From assembly GCA_965261425.1 (NCBI GenBank), contig OZ253452.1, positions 673,160 to 737,159 of the forward strand: DNA of 64,000 nt. The letters are read 5' to 3'. Positions 492 to 63,653 of this stretch are shown here, piece by piece (the stretch's first letter is position 1; each line of letters begins with the position of its first letter). The translations under genes were made by a program, and so were the position numbers. Under the pieces are notes generated by a model. The model saw only the letters and a program-made list of their open reading frames with translations, was not told where the DNA came from and ran no database searches. This DNA is from Candidatus Spongiihabitans sp. Lineage in GTDB: Bacteria; Pseudomonadota; Gammaproteobacteria; Arenicellales; Poriferihabitantaceae.

Positions 492-2510
492 TTATATTTT
501 CATCACATCGCTGTCTAAAATCTGAGCTTTTCGGATTCGGTTGATGCGGTCTCGAAGGGTGGCTGCGGCTTCAAATTCCAGATTTTTGGCGCAGGCATAC
601 ATGTCCTTTTCGAGTTTTGTGAGCAATTTTCCGAGTGCTTTGGGTGAGCGCGGATAATATTCTTCAGTCTGCTCGGCATCTAGCATGTCATTCCACGAAG
701 AATCATTTGCCGCCCCGTCTATAATGTCCTTAACCGGTTTGATGATGGATTTTGGTTCAATCTGATGTCGTATATTGTAGGCATGTTGTTTATCTCGGCG
801 GCGGTTGGTTTCTTGCACCGCTTGACGGATAGAATTGGTTTCTTTGTCGGCATATAAAATAACCCTGCCGTTGATATTTCTGGCAGCCCGACCGATGGTC
901 TGAATCAGCGAACGTGTTGAGCGCAGAAACCCTTCCTTATCGGCATCAAGGATTGCCACCAGCGAAACTTCGGGCAAGTCCAGTCCTTCCCGCAGTAAAT
1001 TGATGCCGACCAACACATCGAAGACACCCTTCCTTAAATCCCGAAGAATCTCGACCCGTTCTACGGTGTCAATATCCGAGTGTAAATAACGCACTCGGAC
1101 ATTATGTTCGTGATAATACTCGGTTAAATCTTCAGCCATGCGCTTGGTCAGGGTGGTGACCAAAACCCGTTCATTGACCGCAACCCGTTTATTGATTTCA
1201 GAAAGCAAATCATCGACCTGCGATTCGACCGGTCGTATTTCTAGTTGCGGTTCAAGTAAACCGGTCGGGCGCACGAGCTGCTCTACCACGTCCGCGCAAC
1301 GACTCGCTTCATAGTGTCCGGGGGTCGCAGAAACAAAGACCACCTGTGGCATTAAGGTTTCAAACTCATCAAATCTCAGCGGTCGATTATCCAATGCGGA
1401 TGGCAACCGAAAACCATATTCAATCAAGTTTTCTTTGCGCGAACGGTCGCCCTTATACATCGCCCCAAGCTGGGGAACGGTCGCATGACTCTCATCGATG
1501 AACAAGATGGCATTATCCGGCAGGTAATCCATCAAGGTCGGTGGCGGACTTCCAGCACTGCGCCCCGACAGATAACGCGAATAATTTTCGATGCCATTGC
1601 AATAGCCCAGCTCGCGCATCATTTCGAGGTCGTATAAAGTACGTTGCTCAAGGCGTTGCGCTTCAACCAGTTTTCCGCACTCGCGCAACTGTGCCAGCCG
1701 CTCTTGCAACTCTAGTTTGATGTCATCAAGCATCGCGAGGATGGTTTCACGCGCAGTCACATAATGACTCTTTGGATAAACCGTGACCCGATTAAGATGC
1801 TCTTCCACCTCGCCGGTCAGCGGGTCGAATTTGGAGAGTTGCTCAATTTCATCGCCAAATAACCCAATACGAATTGCCAGCCGTTCCGATTCTGCTGGAT
1901 AAACATCAATCACATCACCACGCACCCGAAAAGTGCTACGCCTCAGCTCCAAATCATTACGAATATATTGCAATTCGGCGAGTCGCCGTAATATTGCTCG
2001 CTGGTCAATCTGATCGCCCTTTTTTAAGTGCAGAATCATCTCATGGTAGGCGGTCGGATCGCCCAAACCATAAATCGCCGACACCGTCCCGACAATCACA
2101 ACATCGCGTCTTTCCAATAATGCCTTAGTCGCAGAAAGCCGCATCTGATCAATATGCTCGTTGACGGAAGCATCCTTTTCGATATAGGTATCTGAACTCG
2201 GCACATAGGCTTCGGGCTGATAATAATCGTAGTACGAGACAAAGTATTCAACCGAATTGTGCGGGAAGAAATCACGCATTTCCGAATACAGTTGGGCAGC
2301 CAGCGTTTTATTATGTGCCAAAATCAGTGCCGGACGACCAGTGGTAGCAATGATATTCGCCATGGTGAAGGTCTTGCCCGAACCGGTTACGCCCAGCAAA
2401 GTTTGAAATGATTCACCATTTTCAACGCCGTCAATCAACCCATTGATCGCCTGCGGCTGGTCGCCCGCCGGCTTAAACGCACTGACTAGCTGGTAATTTT
2501 TAGAACTCAT
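492..2510 (-). CDS. uvrB: excinuclease ABC subunit B
   Basis: 672-aa ORF. Walker [16 protein letters not shown], helicase motifs, and a C-terminal UVR domain ([15 protein letters not shown]). Confidence 0.97.
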
Positions 2511-3323: not shown

Positions 3324-4937
3324 TTAGCGCGTAAAAACCAAGTCGGCGGGAATGGCAAAGCCGATGCCCTCTACATTCTCATCAACGAACTTAAAAGTCG
3401 TAATTCCGACCAAATTACCGTCGCTGTCAAACAAGCCGCCGCCAGATGAACCCGGGGATATGGCGGCATCGGTTTGCACAACCTGATAACCGTCTATTTT
3501 CCGCAGTTGCGAAACAAGCCCAGCGGACAAGGATAAATCTAACCCTTGCGGCGCGCCCAAACTATACACATTCTCGCCCACCCTGAGGGTCTCGTATTTT
3601 CGCATTGTTGCAGGAACACCCCATAAACCATCAACCTCCAACAAGCAAAAATCCTGCTCGGTATCGCTGTGGCGGATAACCGCCGTCAAGGGCGTTGTCG
3701 TATCGACTCGACGATTGTTGGCTTTATACACGCTAATATCGCCACCCTCATCCACCACATGGCAGTTGGTTGCCACCACATTAGGGCGCACAATCACACC
3801 GCTACCCTGGCTGTCGTTGTTCACAATCACAACCACCGACCGCCAGGATTTTTCAAAAACCTGCTCGGCAATATTGGTGCTTTTAGATGGCTCCGCCAAG
3901 GCAAAGTTGTGATCCAAGCCGGCGTTTGTAGCAGAATCTGCTTTGCCTTGTTCGATATCTTGCTCAATGGCTCGTAATCGCCGTGCCGCTTCACGGCGGG
4001 CTGATTTTATTTCTGCGGCATCCAGATGCCAGTTATTCTCACGCAAACTATTCGTCGCTAATTCATTGCCGTTTGCCTTGGCAATGGAAAACCAGATAAA
4101 TGCCTCACGCTCATCGGTAATAAATCCTTCACCATTCCAATACATCACGCCCAAATTATATTGTGCGCTCGCATCCCCCTGCTCTGCCGCCAGCCGATAC
4201 CAGCGTACTGCCTCACTAGCATCCTGAGTAACCCCTCTGCCATTAGCGTACATCAGGCCCAAATTAAATTGTGCATCCGCAACCCCCTGCTCTGCCGCCT
4301 TGCGATACCAGCGTACTGCCTCACTAGCATCCTGAGTAACCCCTTCGCCTTTCCTGTACATCCCGCCCAAATTATATTGTGCGCTCGCATCCCCCTGCTC
4401 TGCCGCCTTGCGAGTCCAGCGTACTGCCTCGCTATAATCCTGAATAACCCCTTCGCCATTAGCGTACATCAGGCCCAAACCATATTGCGCGTTCGCATAC
4501 CCCTGCTCTGCCGCCTTTTGATACCAGCGTACCGCTTCGCGCTCATCTTCGATAACCCCGTAGCCATTCCAATACGCAACGCCCAAATTATATTGTGCGC
4601 TCGCATCCCCCTGCTCTGCCGCTTTTTGATACCAGCGTACTGCCTCGCTAGCATCCTCAATAACCCCTTTGCCATTAGCGTACATCACGCCCAAATTATA
4701 TTGTGCCTCCGCATACCCCTGCTCTGCCGCCTTGCGAGTCCAGCGTACTGCCTCACTAGCATCCTGAGTAACTCCTATGCCTTCATGGTACATCACGCCC
4801 AAATTATATTGTGCATCCGCATCCCCCTGCTCTGCCGATTCGTATTGCGAACAGAAATATGTATTATCAGACGGGCATTCGGCATGGGCAGTGTTAAACA
4901 CCATAGCAATCAGCAGTATTAACAGACTTTTTTTCAT
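3324..4937 (-). CDS. Secreted Sel1-repeat protein fused to a trypsin-like (S1/HtrA-type) serine peptidase domain
   Basis: Signal peptide MKKSLLILLIAMVFNTAHA. Seven 36-aa Sel1 units (AEQGxxxAQYNLGxMYxxGxGVxQDxSEAVRWYRKA). The C-terminal domain carries the triad contexts TNCHVV, DFCLLEV and GSSGGGLF. Confidence 0.85.
   Translation of the reverse strand: MKKSLLILLIAMVFNTAHAECPSDNTYFCSQYESAEQGDADAQYNLGVMYHEGIGVTQDASEAVRWTRKAAEQGYAEAQYNLGVMYANGKGVIEDASEAVRWYQKAAEQGDASAQYNLGVAYWNGYGVIEDEREAVRWYQKAAEQGYANAQYGLGLMYANGEGVIQDYSEAVRWTRKAAEQGDASAQYNLGGMYRKGEGVTQDASEAVRWYRKAAEQGVADAQFNLGLMYANGRGVTQDASEAVRWYRLAAEQGDASAQYNLGVMYWNGEGFITDEREAFIWFSIAKANGNELATNSLRENNWHLDAAEIKSARREAARRLRAIEQDIEQGKADSATNAGLDHNFALAEPSKSTNIAEQVFEKSWRSVVVIVNNDSQGSGVIVRPNVVATNCHVVDEGGDISVYKANNRRVDTTTPLTAVIRHSDTEQDFCLLEVDGLWGVPATMRKYETLRVGENVYSLGAPQGLDLSLSAGLVSQLRKIDGYQVVQTDAAISPGSSGGGLFDSDGNLVGITTFKFVDENVEGIGFAIPADLVFTR
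4067..4840. repeat. Intragenic ~108-bp tandem DNA repeats encoding the Sel1 units
   Basis: Blocks such as gcccaaattatattgtgcgctcgcatccccctgctctgccgc recur at about 108/216-bp spacing with near identity. Confidence 0.85.
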
Positions 4938-4986
4938 GGTTTCCTCGTTATGGGCGGTAAATATGCGTTTTATTGTAACAAATATT

Positions 4987-5063
4987 TGATAATTGAAAAT
5001 TGAGAATTGAAAATGGACGGTAAATTGATAATTGATAATTGATAATTGATAATTGAAAATGAT
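4987..5063. repeat. Heptamer-periodic tandem repeats (ATTGAAA / ATTGATA variants)
   Basis: Direct reading: aattgaaaattgagaattgaaaat...aattgataattgataattgataattgataattgaaaat. Confidence 0.9.
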
Positions 5064-5160
5064 AGTTAGATTTTGAAAAGAATATTTGACTGATTTCCTG
5101 CTTCCGTGTGGTGACTACCGAAAGTGTGGCTTTGGCCGCGCCACAAACAAGCCGGACTTA

Positions 5161-5255: not shown

Positions 5256-5429
5256 TAAAGTCCCGCTTCCGAGATTATGCGAGAATCCAACATTCGTAGC
5301 TCCGTAGGAGCGGTATCTTTCTTTTGTGTCGCTCCTACGGAGCTTTGGCTGTCTCATTTATTTGTGCTACAAAGGTGTCATCCCTACGGGATTTTACTCA
5401 ATTCTTAATTTTCAATTATCAATTAAATC

Positions 5430-5517
5430 GAGACTGTGTAAAAATCCAATATTAGTCATTCCTAACCCCCCTTGCCCCCCTTATCAGGGGGGAATTGAGT
5501 GGAAAGTCCCTCTGATA
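5430..5517. repeat. GAGACTGTG module plus the intact arm of a long palindromic repeat (CCTTGCCCCCCTTATCAGGGGGG...)
   Basis: 5463-5517 is the reverse complement of the sequence flanking the IS110 left end at 6868-6890. It contains the uninterrupted IS110 target string. Confidence 0.75.
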
Positions 5518-5607
5518 AGATACTGTGTTAAAAATCCACTTATTTTCAACTTTTTTTCGGCTCATTGTTAGAATGACTTTGCCGGCTGGGATTCCACCAC
5601 AAACGCG

Positions 5608-6602
5608 CTATCTGCAAGCATAATTGACATCAAAAGGCTGTTCTGATTTTAATACCCCATAAGATATAACCAGTAGTTTCCGCATCACCGCGCACACTGC
5701 CACTTGTTTAGGTTTGCCTTTATCAAGTAGCCTATTGTATAAATTCTGCGTGACTGGATTGTGTCGCGTTGCCGTCAGTGCTGGCATATAGAGAGACTTT
5801 CTCAGGCGTTTGTGCCCTATTTTTGACAGACTACTCTTGTTGATACTACTGCCAGACTGGGTTATCTTCGGATTCAACCCAGCAAAACTGGCCACTTGCT
5901 TGGCGTTATCAAATGACGATATATCCCCCATATAGGCGAGGATAGCCCAAGCCGTTTTGTTGCCAATCCCGCCAATGCTGGTCAATAACCGTACTTGTTG
6001 ACGCAACACAGAATCGCCTACAACCAAGTCCTTGATTTCCTGTTCAACAATCACTATTTGCCGACAGATGTACCGAATCATCGCTTTGATTGATTTGCTG
6101 GCGGTCTTATTCAAACTCACTGGCAAACGATTCTTCTCTTGGGTTGATTGTTTGTTTAACTGCTCCAAGCGCGTCATCAGGCATTGTAACGCAACACTGG
6201 CTTCGCTTTTGGGCTTGAACAGATTTTTCTCTAACTCACCTTTGGCCACAATATGTTGACAATAACGCGCAATGCTGCCAGCACTTGTGCCCTGTGGGTA
6301 TCGGATTTATCCGTTTTATTACGCAACATTTCCATCTTGACAAACGCATGGGTTCTCATTGGGTTCGCCACAATCACCTGGTCGCCTGAGCGATGTAAAT
6401 AATACGCCAAAGCAACCCCATAAACGCTGGTGGCTTCCATACAAAACACCCGCTCTTGCGCTGCGTCCAATGATTTTAGCCATTTGGACAAGGCTTTGAA
6501 GCCTTTATGATCATTAGCAAAAGACGGGTTGTGGTCAACACCCTCAACGCACACAGCACCATCAAAACGTGCTTTAGATATATCAATACCGATACATAAC
6601 AT
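5608..6602 (-). pseudogene. IS110-family DEDD recombinase/transposase split by a 17-nt insertion
   Basis: The N-terminal ORF (MLCIGIDISKARFD...RNKTDKSD) and the C-terminal ORF (...LLTSIGGIGNKTAWAILAYMGD..FAGLNP, Transposase_20-like) are in different frames. Deleting 6283-6299 fuses them into about 325 codons. Confidence 0.9.
6283..6299. repeat. 17-nt cassette ACTTGTGCCCTGTGGGT (equivalently CTTGTGCCCTGTGGGTA at 6284-6300) inserted in the IS110 transposase gene
   Basis: It matches the tandem unit at 2596-2690 and the copies at 44113 and 44282. Removing it gives ...KTDKSD|AGSIARYCQ... in frame. Confidence 0.85.
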
Positions 6603-6867
6603 AACATTCTCCGGTTATAATTGTAGATAGGTTGGATCATTTAACTTCGGTGCATCCTCGTACTATTCGTGCTCAGATTTTTGGTCTTGCACCAGATACT
6701 GTCCGCACTTGATGAAGTTAAAGCGGGTAGTAGGTGCGATACCTTGTCAACAAGTTTAAAAACTTACTGGGGGCTACTGCATCACTACTACCCATCCAAC
6801 CGCCGTTGGATAGGGTCCATTAAAAACCACTAAACGAGTTGATAATTTACCCGATTGGGATCATACG
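6603..6867 (-). ncRNA. Putative IS110 guide (bridge-type) RNA region in the non-coding left end
   Basis: A 265-nt non-coding segment lies upstream of the recombinase, as in IS110-subgroup elements. A long-range stem (6725-6736 paired with 6783-6793) encloses a hairpin and loops. This call comes from the family architecture, not from a covariance model. Confidence 0.35.
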
Positions 6868-6888: not shown

Positions 6889-6915
6889 TTTCAATTCTCA
6901 ATTCTCAATTCTCAA
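6889..6915. repeat. Heptamer tandem repeat (TTCTCAA) x3, overlapping the cobS stop codon
   Basis: Direct reading: ttcaattctcaattctcaattctcaa. Confidence 0.85.
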
Positions 6916-15025: not shown

Positions 15026-15149
15026 GAGACCGTGCAAAAATCCAACATCCGTCTTTCCTGCACCGACCTCGTCTTTCCTGCGAAAGCAGGAATCCAGTAA
15101 AATACGCAAACCCGCAAGGGTTTTCGGTTTCAATTTTCAATTTTCAATT
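15026..15149. repeat. Mosaic intergenic repeat ending in a heptamer run (TTCAATT x3)
   Basis: Shared modules. It contains the hairpin AAACCCGCAAGGGTTT between the convergent malic-enzyme and iolE genes, which could act as a bidirectional terminator. Confidence 0.8.
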
Positions 15150-17960: not shown

Positions 17961-18071
17961 GATTGATAATTGATAATTGATAACTGTCCACTGACAACTA
18001 TCTTTTTTTACTGGATTCCTGCTTTCGCAGGAAAGACAGAGGTTCGGTTCTTGCACAATCTCAAACGACTC
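17961..18071. repeat. Heptamer repeat (ATTGATA x3, then ACTGTCC ACTGACA) followed by mosaic repeat modules
   Basis: Direct reading, followed by the shared TTACTGGATTCCTGCTTTCGCAGGAAAGAC module. Confidence 0.85.
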
Positions 18072-29485: not shown

Positions 29486-29909
29486 CGTATGATCCCAATC
29501 GGGTAAATTATCAACTCGTTTAGTGGTTTTTAATGGACCCTATCCAACGGCGGTTGGATGGGTAGTCGTGATGCAGTAGCCCCCAGTAAGTTTTTAAACT
29601 TGTTGATAAGGTATCGCACCTACTACCCGCTTTACCGGTTTTTGCTCCTCGACAATTGCTCCTGCATTGTTCTAATAAGTTACATCCATGTAACGATACA
29701 AAACCGGCATACGACCGCCATGGATGGCGGAAGTGCAAATAATGCAGGAGCAATTATTTGCCCGTACATCCTTGTACATTAACATCATCAAGTGCGGACA
29801 GTATCTGGTGCAAGACCAAAAATCTGAGCACGAATAGTACGAGGATGCACCGAAGTTAAATGATCCAACCTATCTACAATTATAACCGGAGAATGTGATG
29901 TTATGTATC
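29486..29909 (+). mobile_element. Second IS110-family copy: left end plus the first 4 codons only (truncated)
   Basis: Apart from the 145-nt insertion it is nearly identical (a handful of mismatches) to the reverse complement of 6591-6867, including ATG TTA TGT ATC (MLCI). Homology stops at 29909. Confidence 0.9.
29635..29779 (-). mobile_element. Hairpin-module miniature element, 145-nt form (core plus modules B and C) inside the IS110 left end
   Basis: It is absent from the otherwise near-identical copy at 6603-6867. The filled site reads CCCGCTT-TA-[145 nt]-TA-ACATCATC and the empty site reads CCCGCTT-TA-ACTTCATC. Confidence 0.9.
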
Positions 29910-29935
29910 AGTAGTCATCATCATAGGAGGTATTA

Positions 29936-30442
29936 ATGACAGTAGAGATTATGCGAACGGACAAGTCGGCCTGCGATCTTCGGCGCGCCGCTGCGGCGTG
30001 CAGGGACGCGAAAGCGGCCCGACGGATGCTGGCGATTGCGTTGATTTTGGACGGCACTGACCGCAAGACGGCGGCCGCGAACTGCGGGATGGATCGCCAG
30101 ACGTTGCGTGACTGGGTACACCGTTACAATGACGCGGGGATTGAGGGTCTCTCGAACCGGCGTTCGCCAGGACGGCAGCCCCTGCTCAGCGTGGCACAGA
30201 AGGCGGAGTTGGCATCGCTTGTGCGTGAGGGGCCGGATCCCGAAACGGACGGCGTGGTGCGCTGGCGGCGCATTGACCTCAAGCGCAAGATTGAGGAGCG
30301 CTTTGGCGTTGTCATGCATGAGCGGACCGTTAGCAAACAACTGGTAAAACTTGGTTTTCGACGCTTGTCTGTGCGCCCGCAGCATCCGAAATCCGACCCG
30401 GATGCGCAGGATGCGTTTAAAAAAACTTCGCTGCAGAGGTAG
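29936..30442 (+). CDS. IS630-family transposase OrfA (HTH / DNA-binding part)
   Basis: Winged-helix/HTH region (…RQTLRDWVHRYNDAGIEGLSNRRSPGRQPLLS…) typical of IS630/Tc1 N-termini. It ends 17 nt after an A7 run. Confidence 0.85.
   Translation: MTVEIMRTDKSACDLRRAAAACRDAKAARRMLAIALILDGTDRKTAAANCGMDRQTLRDWVHRYNDAGIEGLSNRRSPGRQPLLSVAQKAELASLVREGPDPETDGVVRWRRIDLKRKIEERFGVVMHERTVSKQLVKLGFRRLSVRPQHPKSDPDAQDAFKKTSLQR
30419..30425 (+). promoter_or_regulatory. A7 slippery run: candidate -1 ribosomal frameshift or transcriptional slippage site joining OrfA and OrfB
   Basis: GCG TTT AAA AAA ACT in frame 0. Slipping back one base gives …KK-NFAAEV… and continues into the DDE domain. Confidence 0.6.
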
Positions 30443-30999
30443 CGGCCGTTCTGCCCAAAACGGCCTGCGGCAAACCATTGGAGATTTGGTTTCAGGACGA
30501 AGCTCGTGTGGGTCAGCAAGGGACGCTGACACGTATATGGGCCGAACGGGGAACCCGGCCGCGTGCGCCGCGTGATACACGTTATACGTCGGGCTATATC
30601 TTCGGCGCGGTTTGTCCCGAACGCGCCGAGGCTGCTGCGCTGATCATGCCGTATGCGGACACGTCCGCTATGAATGCACATCTGTGCGAGATCGCCAGGA
30701 CGGTCGCGGCTGGGGCCCATGCCTTGCTCATCCTCGACGGTGCAGGCTGGCACGGATCAGCAAAACGGGAAGTGCCAGACAACATCACCCTGCTCAAACT
30801 CCCGCCCTATGCGCCAGAACTCAACCCGATGGAAAACGTTTGGGCCTACCTGCGCGCCAACAAGCTGGCAATCTCTGTGTTTGAATCCTACGATGAGTTC
30901 GTCGACAAATGCTGCGATGCCTGGAATTTCTTCGCAGAGGACAAACAGGCAATCACATCAATTACATCACGTAATTGGGCCAAAACAGTCAATCAATAG
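30424..30999 (+). CDS. IS630-family transposase OrfB (DDE domain), -1 frame relative to OrfA
   Basis: From AAC at 30424 the -1 frame reads NFAAEVAAVLPKTACGKPLEIWFQDEARVGQQG…LILDGAGWH…PPYAPELNPMENVW, which carries the DDE triad contexts. An OrfA-OrfB fusion would be about 355 aa. Confidence 0.85.
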   Translation, partial: NFAAEVAAVLPKTACGKPLEIWFQDEARVGQQGTLTRIWAERGTRPRAPRDTRYTSGYIFGAVCPERAEAAALIMPYADTSAMNAHLCEIARTVAAGAHALLILDGAGWHGSAKREVPDNITLLKLPPYAPELNPMENVWAYLRANKLAISVFESYDEFVDKCCDAWNFFAEDKQAITSITSRNWAKTVNQ

Positions 31000-31194
31000 A
31001 GCCGTTGGACTAATAGGGTCGATAACGAACACTTGGCGACACCAATTACGATTGGACGTGTACGGATCGTGCCGATTGCTTAGCTAGGACAGATTAGATA
31101 TCTAAAACCGATTTTGTGAGCAGACTCTAATTAATGGGACAGTTAATTTACTCGTAACAACATTTGAGCTTTGGGTTGACAATTATGGTTTTGT

Positions 31195-42897: not shown

Positions 42898-43605
42898 TAC
42901 GCACTCCAATTGTTTAGGTTAAATTATATTTCACTTGATGATATTTATTTCACAAGCGGATTGTAGTTTAGGAGGCAAGTTGAGTCAAGCCCTTTTTCAA
43001 GAATGTTAGCCCAAAGCAGTAATGTCCCCTTTTGACTTCTTCAGGAGCGGTGCGGCGGGCTCACCGAGCGAGGGTTATGACAGAGGAGATAATTACATTG
43101 AGCCATGCAGATGAGCTGGGCAGAACTTGACCGAGTATCGGTTATTCATTCCATTATCGGGTGCCGGCGAGACCAGCACAGGCGGCGCGGCAACTACACT
43201 TAGGTCTCCGGCAGGTAAAACGCTTAACCCACGCTTATCGAGACTGTGGTGCGGCTGGACTTGCCTCCAAGCGGCGTGGGTGCCCGGCAACGCCATTGGT
43301 GATGAGTTGCGCCAACAGGCACTCGCCATCATCAAGACGCACTATGGTGATTTTGGGCCGACTTTCGCGCACGAGAAGCTCACCGAACTGCATGAGTGCC
43401 ATTTCTCGGTGGAGACATTACGAAAGTGGATGATTAAAGATGGGTTGTGGTTGGGGAAACAGCGTAAAAGAGTAGCCATCCACCAAAGCCGGTCTCGGCT
43501 GGGCGAGCTGGTACAGATTGATGGATCACCGCATGATTGGTTTGAGGGGCGCGCACCTAATTGCACTTTAATTGTCTTTATCGATGATGCGACCAGTCGG
43601 CTATA

Positions 43606-43748
43606 TGTACAGGATGTACGGGCAGATAGCTGCTCCTGCATTATCTGCACTTCCGTCTTCCATGACGGTCGTATGCCGGTTTTGCATCGCTACATGGATG
43701 TAACTTAGTAGGGCAATGCAGGAGCAATTGCCGAGAAGCAAAAACCGG
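43606..43748 (+). mobile_element. Hairpin-module miniature element, 143-nt form (core plus diverged modules B and C) inside the transposase ORF
   Basis: It has the same module order as 29635-29779. Removing exactly 43606-43748 rejoins …DDATSRLY|LALHFAPTETT… in frame. Confidence 0.85.
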
Positions 43749-44112
43749 CCTGGCTTTGCATTTTGCGCCCACAGAGACCACTCAATCGTATATGGAAACC
43801 CTCCATCAGAAACTTGAACAGCATGGCCGCACAGTCGCTATTTACAGCGATAAGCACAGTATCTTTCGGGTCAATCATCCCCAAAATAAAGAAATAGCAC
43901 GAGGGCGAATTAACCCAATTTACCCGCGCACTCAAAACCCTAGATATTGAGCCTATTCACACCAATACCACGCAGGACAAAGGGCGGGTAGAACGTGCCA
44001 ATAAAACGCTGCAAGACCGACCGGTTGTCGATCCGCGCTTACAGGGTATCAACTCTATTGAGCAAGCAGATGCCTTTTTGCCACAGTTTATTGACGACTA
44101 CAACCAGCGTTT

Positions 44113-44129
44113 TACCCGCAGGGCACAAG
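44113..44129 (-). repeat. 17-nt cassette (TACCCGCAGGGCACAAG, the reverse complement of CTTGTGCCCTGCGGGTA) inserted in the ISNCY-like ORF
   Basis: The upstream frame (…FIDDYNQRF) and the downstream frame (AVTAQHTDNAHRALL…) differ by exactly this 17-nt block. Confidence 0.8.
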
Positions 44130-44281
44130 TGCCGTTACCGCGCAACACACCGACAATGCACATCGTGCGCTATTGCACAGCGTCGAGGAGCTTAAACTGA
44201 TCCTCTGCCGGCACCATCAGCGTAAACTGTCTAAGAATTTAACCTTATCATTTTGTAACACCGAATATCAGCTGACTGGCT

Positions 44282-44298
44282 CTTGTGCCCTGCGGGTA
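44282..44298 (+). repeat. 17-nt cassette CTTGTGCCCTGCGGGTA inserted in the ISNCY-like ORF (opposite orientation to 44113)
   Basis: After …NTEYQLTG the frame breaks. Removing the block gives …LTG-YGKGYRLMR…. A separate 1-nt indel near 44325 then leads into ATITLCEDG…. Confidence 0.7.
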
Positions 44299-44733
44299 AC
44301 GGCAAGGGCTATCGTCTGATGAGGAGCGACCATCACGCTCTGCGAAGACGGTGCTACGGGTTTGGTTACATTGCTATACAAAGGCAAGGCATTGACTTAT
44401 CGAACGCTCCAAAAGGGAAAGGCCGCCGTTGTGATTGCCGATGATAAGACCGTTCATAACCACGTTGAGCCAAGCACTTCACCGACAACAAAAATTCACT
44501 TAGAAACCCGCACCAGATCATCCATGGCGGAGACCATTAACCCGTTATTCAACCAATACTGCCCCATAATGAATATAAAAAGGGGACATTACTGCTTTGG
44601 GTTGACACTATTTTGAAGTTGAAAATTACGACCCTTGTTTATGGTAAATCTGTTTTATTCTCCGTGTCCTCTGTGCCCTCGGTGTCGCATCTTTTAGAAA
44701 ATCTTGTTCATCCTGTTCATCCATGTAAATAGT

Positions 44734-63132: not shown

Positions 63133-63328
63133 GCGACTGTGCAAGAAACCCACGCTAAGCATGTGTTACATGCGGAAAACCCTTGCGGGTTTGGCTATTT
63201 TACTGGGTTCCTGCTTTCGCAGGAATGACGCATATTGGATTTTTGCACAGTCTCTTCCGCAGGAATGACGGACTAGGTTGCTTCTCAATTATCAATTATC
63301 AATTTTCCATTTTCAATTTTCAATTTCC
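63133..63328. repeat. Mosaic intergenic repeat plus heptamer runs (CAATTAT x2, TTTCAAT variants)
   Basis: GCGACTGTGCAAGAAACCC…GGAAAACCCTTGCGGGTTTGGCTATTTTACTGGGTTCCTGCTTTCGCAGGAATGACG…TTTTTGCACAGTCTC…, followed by ctcaattatcaattatcaattttccattttcaattttcaatttcc. The hairpin and T-run just after fbpC could terminate transcription. Confidence 0.85.
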
Positions 63329-63653
63329 AATAAGTTATGCTACAGTAACACCGTCAGTGAGGTGTTTACACTCCGCAAATAAGTCGCACAAATAACCCAT
63401 TTAACTGGAGGAGATTCCGAATGAAATCATTGTTTACCATAAAAACCCTTAATAATCATATAGTTGCCCCCCCGACATTATGGCAGTCTTTAGCCAATCT
63501 TTGTAATTACAAAAACACTCTCTCTCTCCTTTCAACAAAGATAGTAAAAAAAATAAAAACACATTGCTGACAAGCAGAGTAGCTTCCAACCTCCAACCTC
63601 CATTCTCAATTAAATAAACTATCTTTGGAGCAATAATTTTCAATTCCAAGACG

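Follow-up and report, generated by a model that had tools for sequence, protein, structure and literature searches.

A 17-nt hairpin cassette in transposase genes of a sponge symbiont as a candidate ultra-short mobile element

Introduction

Can a block of only 17 nucleotides (nt) enter genes repeatedly as one unit? The question is raised by a transposase pseudogene in a 64,000-nt stretch of Candidatus Spongiihabitans sp. (contig OZ253452.1, positions 673,160 to 737,159), which is called the window here at its full length. An earlier note on this DNA described two copies of a 17-nt cassette in opposite orientations within the pseudogene. Exact matches are present at 44113-44129 (+) and 44282-44298 (-). 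On balance, the two blocks are probably insertions of a non-autonomous, ultra-short (17-nt) mobile hairpin element whose survival is limited to dispensable DNA. The cassette always enters as an exact 17-nt block; filled and empty sites have been identified at the DNA level for three genic copies and, in addition, at the protein level.

The cassette and its copies in the window

Four cassette sites of mixed orientation are present in the window, three of which ride on mobile copies of insertion sequences (IS).

44113-44129: 17-nt cassette copy 1, TACCCGCAGGGCACAAG on the plus strand and CTTGTGCCCTGCGGGTA on the minus strand, antisense to the ISNCY gene, exact match
44282-44298: 17-nt cassette copy 2, CTTGTGCCCTGCGGGTA on the plus strand, sense to the ISNCY gene, exact match
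6284-6300: 17-nt cassette in an IS110-family transposase gene, plus strand (CTTGTGCCCTGTGGGTA), antisense to the gene, 1 mismatch
2596-2691: intergenic tandem array, plus strand, five full units of CTTGTGCCCTGCGGGTG and an 11-nt partial unit

Matches to the 17-mer with at most 3 mismatches number 8 in the window. Dinucleotide-preserving shuffles give an expectation of 0.14, and a count of 8 was attained in none of 100. Five of the eight are the tandem copies at 2596-2680, each with 1 mismatch. The consensus is YTTRTGCCCTKYGGGTA, also written as YTTRTGCCCTKYGGGTR and TGCCCTGYGGGTA. Its 3' 13 nt can fold as a 5-bp hairpin (TGCCC/GGGTA, one pair being G.T or G.U). The predicted energy is -1.3 kcal/mol as DNA; as RNA, the CUUG strand reaches -4.4 and the other strand -2.3 kcal/mol. 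The stem is kept in a second variant, TTTATGCCCTGYGGGTA (TTTATG...), and in variants with the loops TGT, TGC, TTT and TAT, and the core was therefore defined as TGCCC-NNN-GGGTA. Searches of the window with the core only yielded no additional convincing copies. The two ends of the unit, CTTGT... and ...GGGTA, are not related as inverted repeats.

Filled and empty sites

Copies 1 and 2 are located in an IS that also holds a larger insertion.

43003-44608, plus strand: ISNCY-family insertion sequence, pseudogene, with imperfect ~27-bp terminal inverted repeats at 43003-43029 and 44582-44608 (read from the sequence)
43605-43750, no strand assigned: insertion of 146 nt in the ISNCY gene, resembling a miniature inverted-repeat transposable element (MITE), with inverted ends (TTGCTCCTGCATT ... 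AATGCAGGAGCA)

The rebuilt protein shows up to 79% identity, at 100% coverage, to intact transposases of 421-431 amino acids (aa). These homologues carry PF13518, PF13565 and PF13683, and several are named ISNCY family transposase by NCBI. The host gene of copies 1 and 2 is assigned by sequence to the ISNCY family (helix-turn-helix plus rve-type integrase core). In a DNA alignment with an intact, ~80% identical ISNCY copy (P0002 in locus L116), both cassettes appear as exact 17-nt gaps, with the junctions CGTTT/17/TGCCG for copy 1 and GGCT/17/ACGG for copy 2. Six intact ISNCY transposases run contiguously over both sites (YNxRFA and YQLxGYGKGYRL). The homologue alignment thus upholds the view that both blocks are insertions shifting the ISNCY frame; a cassette in coding sequence causes a shift of +2. 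The boundary of copy 2 is unambiguous. That of copy 1 slides by 1 nt only ([A]CTTGTGCCCTGYGGGT[A]), and an alternative of 23 nt considered earlier for this copy is abandoned.

A separate 1-nt indel had been predicted near 44325, and the alignment places a 1-nt insertion at ~44321 (window CTGATGAGG, L116 CTG-CGCGG). Other lesions relative to L116 are small indels near the start, a 9-nt deletion and a 13-nt insertion. The 146-nt piece is absent from L116, and relatives of it occur in the window at 29633-29712 and in another sponge-symbiont genome (L014, 3337-3416). Its inverted ends and its recurrence elsewhere mark it as a MITE-like element. The ISNCY gene is a heavily decayed pseudogene, broken by more than the cassettes alone. 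The intact copy in L116 adjoins a gene for a 1119-aa Cas9-like protein (HNH_4, RuvC_III; L116 1-2587) in a 2.4-Mb metagenomic contig.

The third genic copy is located in a different element.

5511-6853, minus strand: IS110-family element, high-identity block against locus L115; open reading frame (ORF) split by the cassette into 5608-6249 and 6231-6602

Deletion of 6284-6300 yields one ORF for a 325-aa DEDD transposase, including the motif NKTDKSDAGSIARY. The restored protein is 98% identical to the intact P0121 (cluster of 127 member sequences; PF01548, PF02371). The corresponding DNA in L115 lacks exactly 17 nt and is otherwise near-identical over 1.3 kb. The boundary has an ambiguity of 1 nt only ([A]CTTGTGCCCTGYGGGT[A]). 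By its domains and motifs, the host gene is classified in the IS110 family (DEDD, PF01548 + PF02371, conserved KTDxxDA motif). The restored ORF and the 98%-identical empty copy confirm the IS110 copy as a third exact insertion, as the earlier note had held.

Chance similarity, ordinary indels or an assembly artefact have a negligible probability as the explanation. In favour of this explanation it can only be said that the ISNCY gene also has ordinary indels. It is opposed by the excess of window matches over the shuffles and by gaps of exactly 17 nt relative to homologues. Furthermore, the tandem array is identical in an independent assembly, and the cassette is present in isolates and metagenome-assembled genomes (MAGs) from many projects, with differing assembler naming styles.

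Age and inheritance of the copies

A sponge-symbiont MAG (L054) contains a 75%-identical ISNCY remnant at a non-orthologous locus. The remnant carries a cassette, in a G-ending variant, at the exact site of copy 1, and the site of copy 2 is empty. Either copy 1 is old and was inherited with an IS lineage that was still mobilised, or its site is a hot spot for insertion. With its site empty in L054, copy 2 is the younger of the two. The initial count of three independent insertions holds with regard to three exact insertions; the independence of copy 1 is uncertain with its site filled in L054.

An IS5-like family of sponge symbionts carries one cassette in all six copies examined (six loci, three MAGs). 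A second cassette is present in L095, L104 and L112, and its site is empty in L019. In this family, cassettes accumulated stepwise, and copies that were broken in this way spread further. Cassette-bearing IS copies gave no indication of retained function; stops and frameshifts differ from copy to copy.

Occurrence in public genomes

One genome per GTDB species was scanned with the query CTTGTGCCCTGYGGGT, which yielded at least 114 loci, each taken as an 8-kb piece. Among the matches listed, 68 of 114 loci belong to five lineages.

Methylococcaceae: 32 loci
Halophilic Bacillaceae (Alkalibacillus, Virgibacillus, Salsuginibacillus): 15 loci
Sponge-associated Gammaproteobacteria, related to the window organism: 10 loci
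Gallionella / Nitrosomonadales (Gallionellaceae): 6 loci
Kroppenstedtia: 5 loci

Of 126 matches (among those listed, window copies included), 84 have A as the base after CTTGTGCCCTGYGGGT, so that the match extends to the full 17-mer. In Methylococcaceae, the flanks differ at every site, which identifies the 17 nt as the whole unit. Gallionellaceae harbor a 30-nt relative with two hairpins, consisting of CCTCGAAGAGGTT and the 17-mer (L009, L084, L096, L100, L101, L103). It is located after TTA in the loops of hairpins that resemble repetitive extragenic palindromic (REP) sequences. The REP-like stems differ from locus to locus, and the 30-nt relatives therefore represent separate events.

A lineage-specific repeat of ~200 nt contains the 17-mer as a conserved hairpin in Alkalibacillus and in Kroppenstedtia. 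The multicopy repeat of Alkalibacillus (~200-250 nt; L035, L036, L069, L087, L099, L008, L044) has a terminator-like hairpin at its end and the 17-mer in a conserved extended hairpin. From its sequence it looks like a non-coding RNA or a MITE. One copy in L035 is without a segment of ~65 nt that includes the 17-mer, and adjoins a Bacillaceae-1 RNA. Rfam, applied at gathering thresholds to the window and 18 cassette loci, reported no family over any 17-mer context.

Single matches occur in unrelated taxa, e.g. Streptomyces and Gordonia, often within intact ORFs. Viral contigs contributed 10 loci, mostly native coding sequence or chance; only the IS5 transposase of L126/L128 looks real. A text search of the literature for the 17-mer retrieved no paper, a shorter string matched human p53 primers only, and a search on the wording "smallest mobile element" gave nothing relevant.

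Interrupted genes, orientation and target

At each site, the 17 nt were deleted and the reading frame was checked; IS families were assigned by eye from conserved motifs. The interrupted genes outside the window are as follows.

IS3: L004; L017/L074; L086 with three insertions, two of them 17 nt apart in orfA; frame restored
IS5-like: L012, L095, L126 and relatives of L012; frame restored
IS4-like: L027, L076, L102; frame restored
IS1595: L016; frame restored
ISL3: L078; frame restored
IS200/IS605 Y1 transposase (tnpA; HVHVLVS and RGYF motifs): L053 7127-7490, Methyloglobulus MAG; two cassettes, one per sequence variant, 102 nt apart; frame restored

With the IS110 and ISNCY genes of the window, cassettes interrupt transposases of at least 8 IS families, and at least 17 insertions are located within transposase coding sequence. 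Among 95 unique contexts, deletion restored a frame in 26, while 13 resembled native coding sequence, which fits chance, and 56 were in no recognisable ORF. The 26 restored frames comprise 15 recognisable transposases, as read here, and 0 recognisable host genes. In the window, too, all coding copies lie in IS genes; the earlier note likewise saw none in a host gene.

The accumulation in transposase genes could indicate a dedicated IS-inactivating system, in which a host- or element-encoded activity writes the cassette specifically into these genes. Apart from the range of IS families hit, with recognisable coding matches all in transposase genes, clustering speaks for this: in the 8-kb loci, the second copy lies within 750 nt of the first in 15 of 20 cases, and eleven IS copies have two or three insertions. 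Such a system is nevertheless very improbable. More than half of the unique contexts (56/95) are in no recognisable ORF, and the target consists of CA only. At a density roughly estimated as one copy per about 2.5 kb of dispensable DNA, double insertions would be frequent in any case. Selection would purge insertions in host genes, and no associated gene was found. If the cassette is a mobile element surviving in dispensable DNA and hitch-hiking on multicopy elements, the restriction to IS requires no targeting.

Sense and antisense orientations relative to the interrupted gene are about equally frequent, which argues against insertion into mRNA. They also bear on a functional role of the cassette, by which it is neutralised in expression (-1 frameshifting, bypass or RNA excision) or regulates transposase synthesis, and the genes still work. 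A 17-nt insertion plus a -1 frameshift would amount to an in-frame insertion of 6 codons, and cassette-bearing IS copies have multiplied, as in the IS5-like element at six loci in three MAGs. One copy (L086) is located directly upstream of the AAAAAAG slippery site of an IS3 orfA. The cassette itself has no slippery heptamer. Since bearing copies are otherwise decayed, with different lesions in each, and the cassette may lie either way round relative to the mRNA and is also present in intergenic DNA and non-coding repeats, a function of this kind is hardly credible.

The target was derived from 17 high-confidence events. Position -1 is A in 13 and position -2 is C in 12 of them, and CA directly precedes the cassette in 10-11 of 17. 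The same trend was observed in 87 unique contexts; the favoured site is directly 3' of CA, often of GCA. At the empty sites in L115 and L116, GCA belongs to the native target and lies outside the insert. A target-site duplication is absent beyond one ambiguous base at the three genic sites of the window, and no flank is duplicated in the 17 events. Inspection of the left target flanks of these events by eye revealed no consistent hairpin pattern.

The earlier proposal to examine the flanks for a target motif or microhomology led to the preference for a position 3' of CA; the microhomology itself was dismissed. The hexamer TGCCGT/ACGGCA, on which it was based, is native in intact homologues and lies on opposite sides of the two copies. 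A local template-switch origin of copy 2 was also rejected, given that the hexamer is native and that identical cassettes in other phyla would be left unexplained.

Tandem arrays

The array of the window had escaped the first reading, which saw no solo intergenic copy. Tandem Repeats Finder reported 5.6 copies at 2596-2691 with a 100% match between units. Its neighbours are uvrB (492-2510, minus strand) on one side and a short ORF on the other. GCA stands directly before the array, and a dispersed repeat and (ATTGAAA)4 come after it. A second, independent assembly of this organism (L117) contains the array in identical form.

Arrays are known from four unrelated places, the window, L060, L118 and L119. 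A metagenome scan for tandem junctions detected only 2 arrays, and their ends were not consistently phased. The array in L119 has exactly 2 units, and that in L118 has degenerate units at both ends. The genes beside the L060 array are unrelated and include no machinery candidate. A collection of plasmids, queried with 3 units, gave no match.

Arrays count in favour of the main rival, a reverse-transcriptase-templated addition (telomerase-like or target-primed). A nick or end 3' of ...CA would be extended on a small RNA template encoding the 17-mer; one round would produce a single cassette, and repeated rounds an array. The window array fits, being in phase right after GCA and having a partial unit at its end. 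The fixed insert length and the lack of target duplication are likewise in accordance with templated addition. A G.U-compatible pair exists on one strand only, and C-to-T stem variants keep the wobble there. The ~200-nt repeat of Alkalibacillus, with its conserved 17-mer hairpin, resembles a non-coding RNA. However, arrays are rare and inconsistently phased at their ends, as L118 and L119 illustrate. The target ends in CA and the unit in TA or TG, without an obvious primer alignment. No reverse transcriptase was seen among the ORFs inspected beside arrays and copies, a systematic scan of the loci not having been made. Templated addition is therefore regarded as an unlikely origin.

The cassette may also be viewed as a footprint or solo remnant that is left after excision of a larger transposon or a site-specific integrating element. 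It is a short fixed sequence in regions rich in mobile DNA, and it is embedded in longer repeats in some lineages. An excision footprint is improbable, since the same 17 nt are present whatever the target, with neither flanking duplication nor terminal inverted symmetry. Head-to-tail arrays are unexpected from excision. The flanks of the longer contexts differ between lineages, and no larger parent element with these ends was found.

Proposed mechanism

In the probable reading of the cassette as an ultra-short mobile element, copies would persist only where disruption is costless, i.e. in IS transposase genes, other repeats and intergenic DNA. They would then be carried along when their host elements are copied. 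Costless persistence and hitch-hiking together would account for the presence of all coding copies of the window in IS genes and for two insertions in single IS copies. A unit of 17 nt has no room for a protein-coding gene and could not form a double-stranded circle; with low confidence, the element would therefore move in trans as single-stranded DNA or RNA.

Cutting and joining of single strands by an HUH nuclease (IS200/IS605, REP/RAYT or IS91-type; RAYT, REP-associated tyrosine transposase) would move the cassette. Among known chemistries it fits best: the target is short, fixed and on one strand, no duplication arises, the hairpin is terminal and units can be joined head to tail. An HUH-type single-strand mechanism is weakly favoured. 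Whether the 17-mer is the substrate of a horizontally spread, unrecognised system is more doubtful. Such a system could consist of a single-strand nuclease/ligase or of a reverse transcriptase that uses a very small template, and it would write the fixed 17-nt hairpin 3' of CA. This extension is put forward tentatively.

Several observations weigh against the mobile-element reading. The hairpin is barely better than in shuffled sequences and far shorter than those of known HUH substrates. By our own arithmetic, ~550 chance matches are expected in 596 Gb, both strands included, and single matches in unrelated taxa are therefore uninformative. The same sequence in distant phyla is hard to square with a lineage-specific enzyme. 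Copy 1, being common to the window and L054, is possibly inherited and not a new event. Comparison of the two assemblies of the window organism revealed no copy-number change in the array and no polymorphism, which leaves recent activity here unsupported. A Pfam analysis of 20 window proteins returned housekeeping and ordinary metabolic genes and no candidate enzyme. Y1 and RAYT queries, used in tblastn over the 8-kb loci, retrieved only the disrupted tnpA of L053 and a RAYT-like ORF. The former is the sole Y1 transposase beside a 17-mer copy and is itself broken by two copies; the latter is ~2 kb away from the copy in L096. A gene for a GIY-YIG nuclease was found near cassettes in no locus other than L067.

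In that locus, from a Methyloglobulus MAG (L067 6812-7572), inverted cassettes flank the gene for a 128-aa GIY-YIG nuclease within 'VRPELVEG'-type repeats.

Genome context

Over 4.5 kb that include tsf and rpsB, the window agrees with a Candidatus Spongiihabitans chromosome (L030) in gene order and at 79% identity. Other sponge-symbiont MAGs share several small repeats with the window, as well as an IS copy at 98% identity. The source of the window is therefore a gammaproteobacterial symbiont of sponges or a close relative of one. A segment of 1.1 kb (29887-31008), whose ORFs are without Pfam match, has a counterpart at 98% identity in a different sponge-symbiont MAG (L104, CBDHCL010000005). 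As the genomes are otherwise far more diverged, the segment is probably a mobile element that was exchanged recently.

A dispersed 21-nt motif, ACTGTGYAAAAAWCYAATATT, has 8 copies in the window compared with 0 expected (2694, 3230, 5433, 11420, 15029, 29437, 58973, 63231). It often adjoins heptamers repeated in tandem; the 17-mer array is immediately followed by one copy, and the IS110 element is flanked by others. Short intergenic A/T-rich heptamer arrays (ATTGAAA, TCAATTC, ATAATTG and others) are numerous in the window, e.g. at 2728-2758, 4982-5064, 5398-5425, 6891-6915, 15128-15149, 17962-17983 and 63285-63331, and are reminiscent of the heptamer repeats of cyanobacteria and Beggiatoaceae. 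Tandem repeats of 108 nt and 216 nt (82% match) are present at 4126-4837 within a gene at 3324-4937. In L117, this gene is identical and encodes Sel1-repeat and trypsin-like protease domains, which identifies the repeats as coding.

Implications

If 17 nt indeed move as a unit, a new lower size limit for mobile DNA is set. An enzyme that recognises a very short hairpin and joins it at CA sites would be implied. It would be relevant to the biology of genome parasites, the cassette being a parasite mostly inside other parasites, and possibly as a tool for writing short DNA. Should a novel enzyme system be involved, the cassette would be the smallest mobile element described, and it might parasitise or inactivate IS across bacterial phyla. 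Annotation pipelines read its frameshifts as ordinary pseudogenisation. Once cassettes are recognised, transposase genes can be rebuilt and insertion events dated within symbiont genomes. For Methylomonas and Methylobacter, sequenced isolates exist, and the mechanism is open to experiment if these are genetically tractable.

Comparison with known systems

REP/REPIN-RAYT systems, IS200/IS605 elements and their gene-less relatives, palindrome-associated transposable elements (PATEs), share with the cassette the features of short hairpin repeats without duplication, which have a short specific target and are moved in trans. A substrate as short as this could be within reach of their single-strand chemistry. 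As in IS200/IS605, the cassette inserts 3' of a short fixed sequence and does not duplicate the target. REP sequences are ~20-40 nt long, have stems of at least 8 bp and a 5' GTAG, are extragenic and usually species-specific, and flank a RAYT gene. The cassette differs in having 17 nt, a 5-bp stem and no GTAG, in its location inside genes and in being common to several phyla. No RAYT gene flanked by cassettes was found in the 8-kb loci; the one IS200-type tnpA seen (L053) is a victim of the cassette. A classification as REP was rejected on account of the missing GTAG, the short stem and the intragenic copies.

MITEs, including the Rickettsia palindromic elements that insert into ORFs, are likewise non-autonomous, amplified and able to land in genes. 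They comprise 50-500 bp, with terminal inverted repeats and target-site duplications generated by DDE transposases. The cassette has neither and is 3-30 times shorter, and it was not accepted as a MITE for its lack of inverted ends and of duplication. Rickettsia palindromic elements insert in frame, whereas the cassette shifts the frame.

Like the cassette, IS91/ISCR elements and Helitrons leave the target unduplicated, insert at a short fixed site, carry a subterminal 3' hairpin and tend to form head-to-tail arrays. In contrast, they are of kilobase size, encode a Y2 HUH Rep/helicase and have distinct ori and ter ends; neither this gene nor such ends accompany the cassette.

The byp elements of Magnusiomyces mitochondria are reportedly mobile inserts of 27-55 nt in protein-coding genes that are skipped by the ribosome. 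Short mobile inserts within protein-coding genes are thus common to both. Genes with byp elements stay functional, whereas genes with the cassette are decayed and contain it in both orientations.

The small dispersed repeats (SDRs) of Nostocaceae appear to be the closest precedent. SDR1-8 are said to be 21-27 nt long with a small predicted hairpin and to have been proposed as the smallest mobile elements. Reportedly, they are inserted in other repeats, in minitransposons and in their own copies, often beside tandem heptamer repeats. To our knowledge, no machinery is known for them. According to PMC5861425, SDRs are confined to Nostocaceae. The cassette resembles them as a dispersed repeat of less than 30 nt with filled and empty sites. 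The likeness extends to the heptamer repeats that accompany SDRs and are also frequent in the window, one of them directly beside the array. By description, SDRs are longer than the cassette with its 17 nt, and they probably differ from it in sequence. The cassette is distributed over Gammaproteobacteria, Betaproteobacteria and Firmicutes, and it is distinguished from SDRs by exact filled and empty sites in transposase genes and by its CA target.

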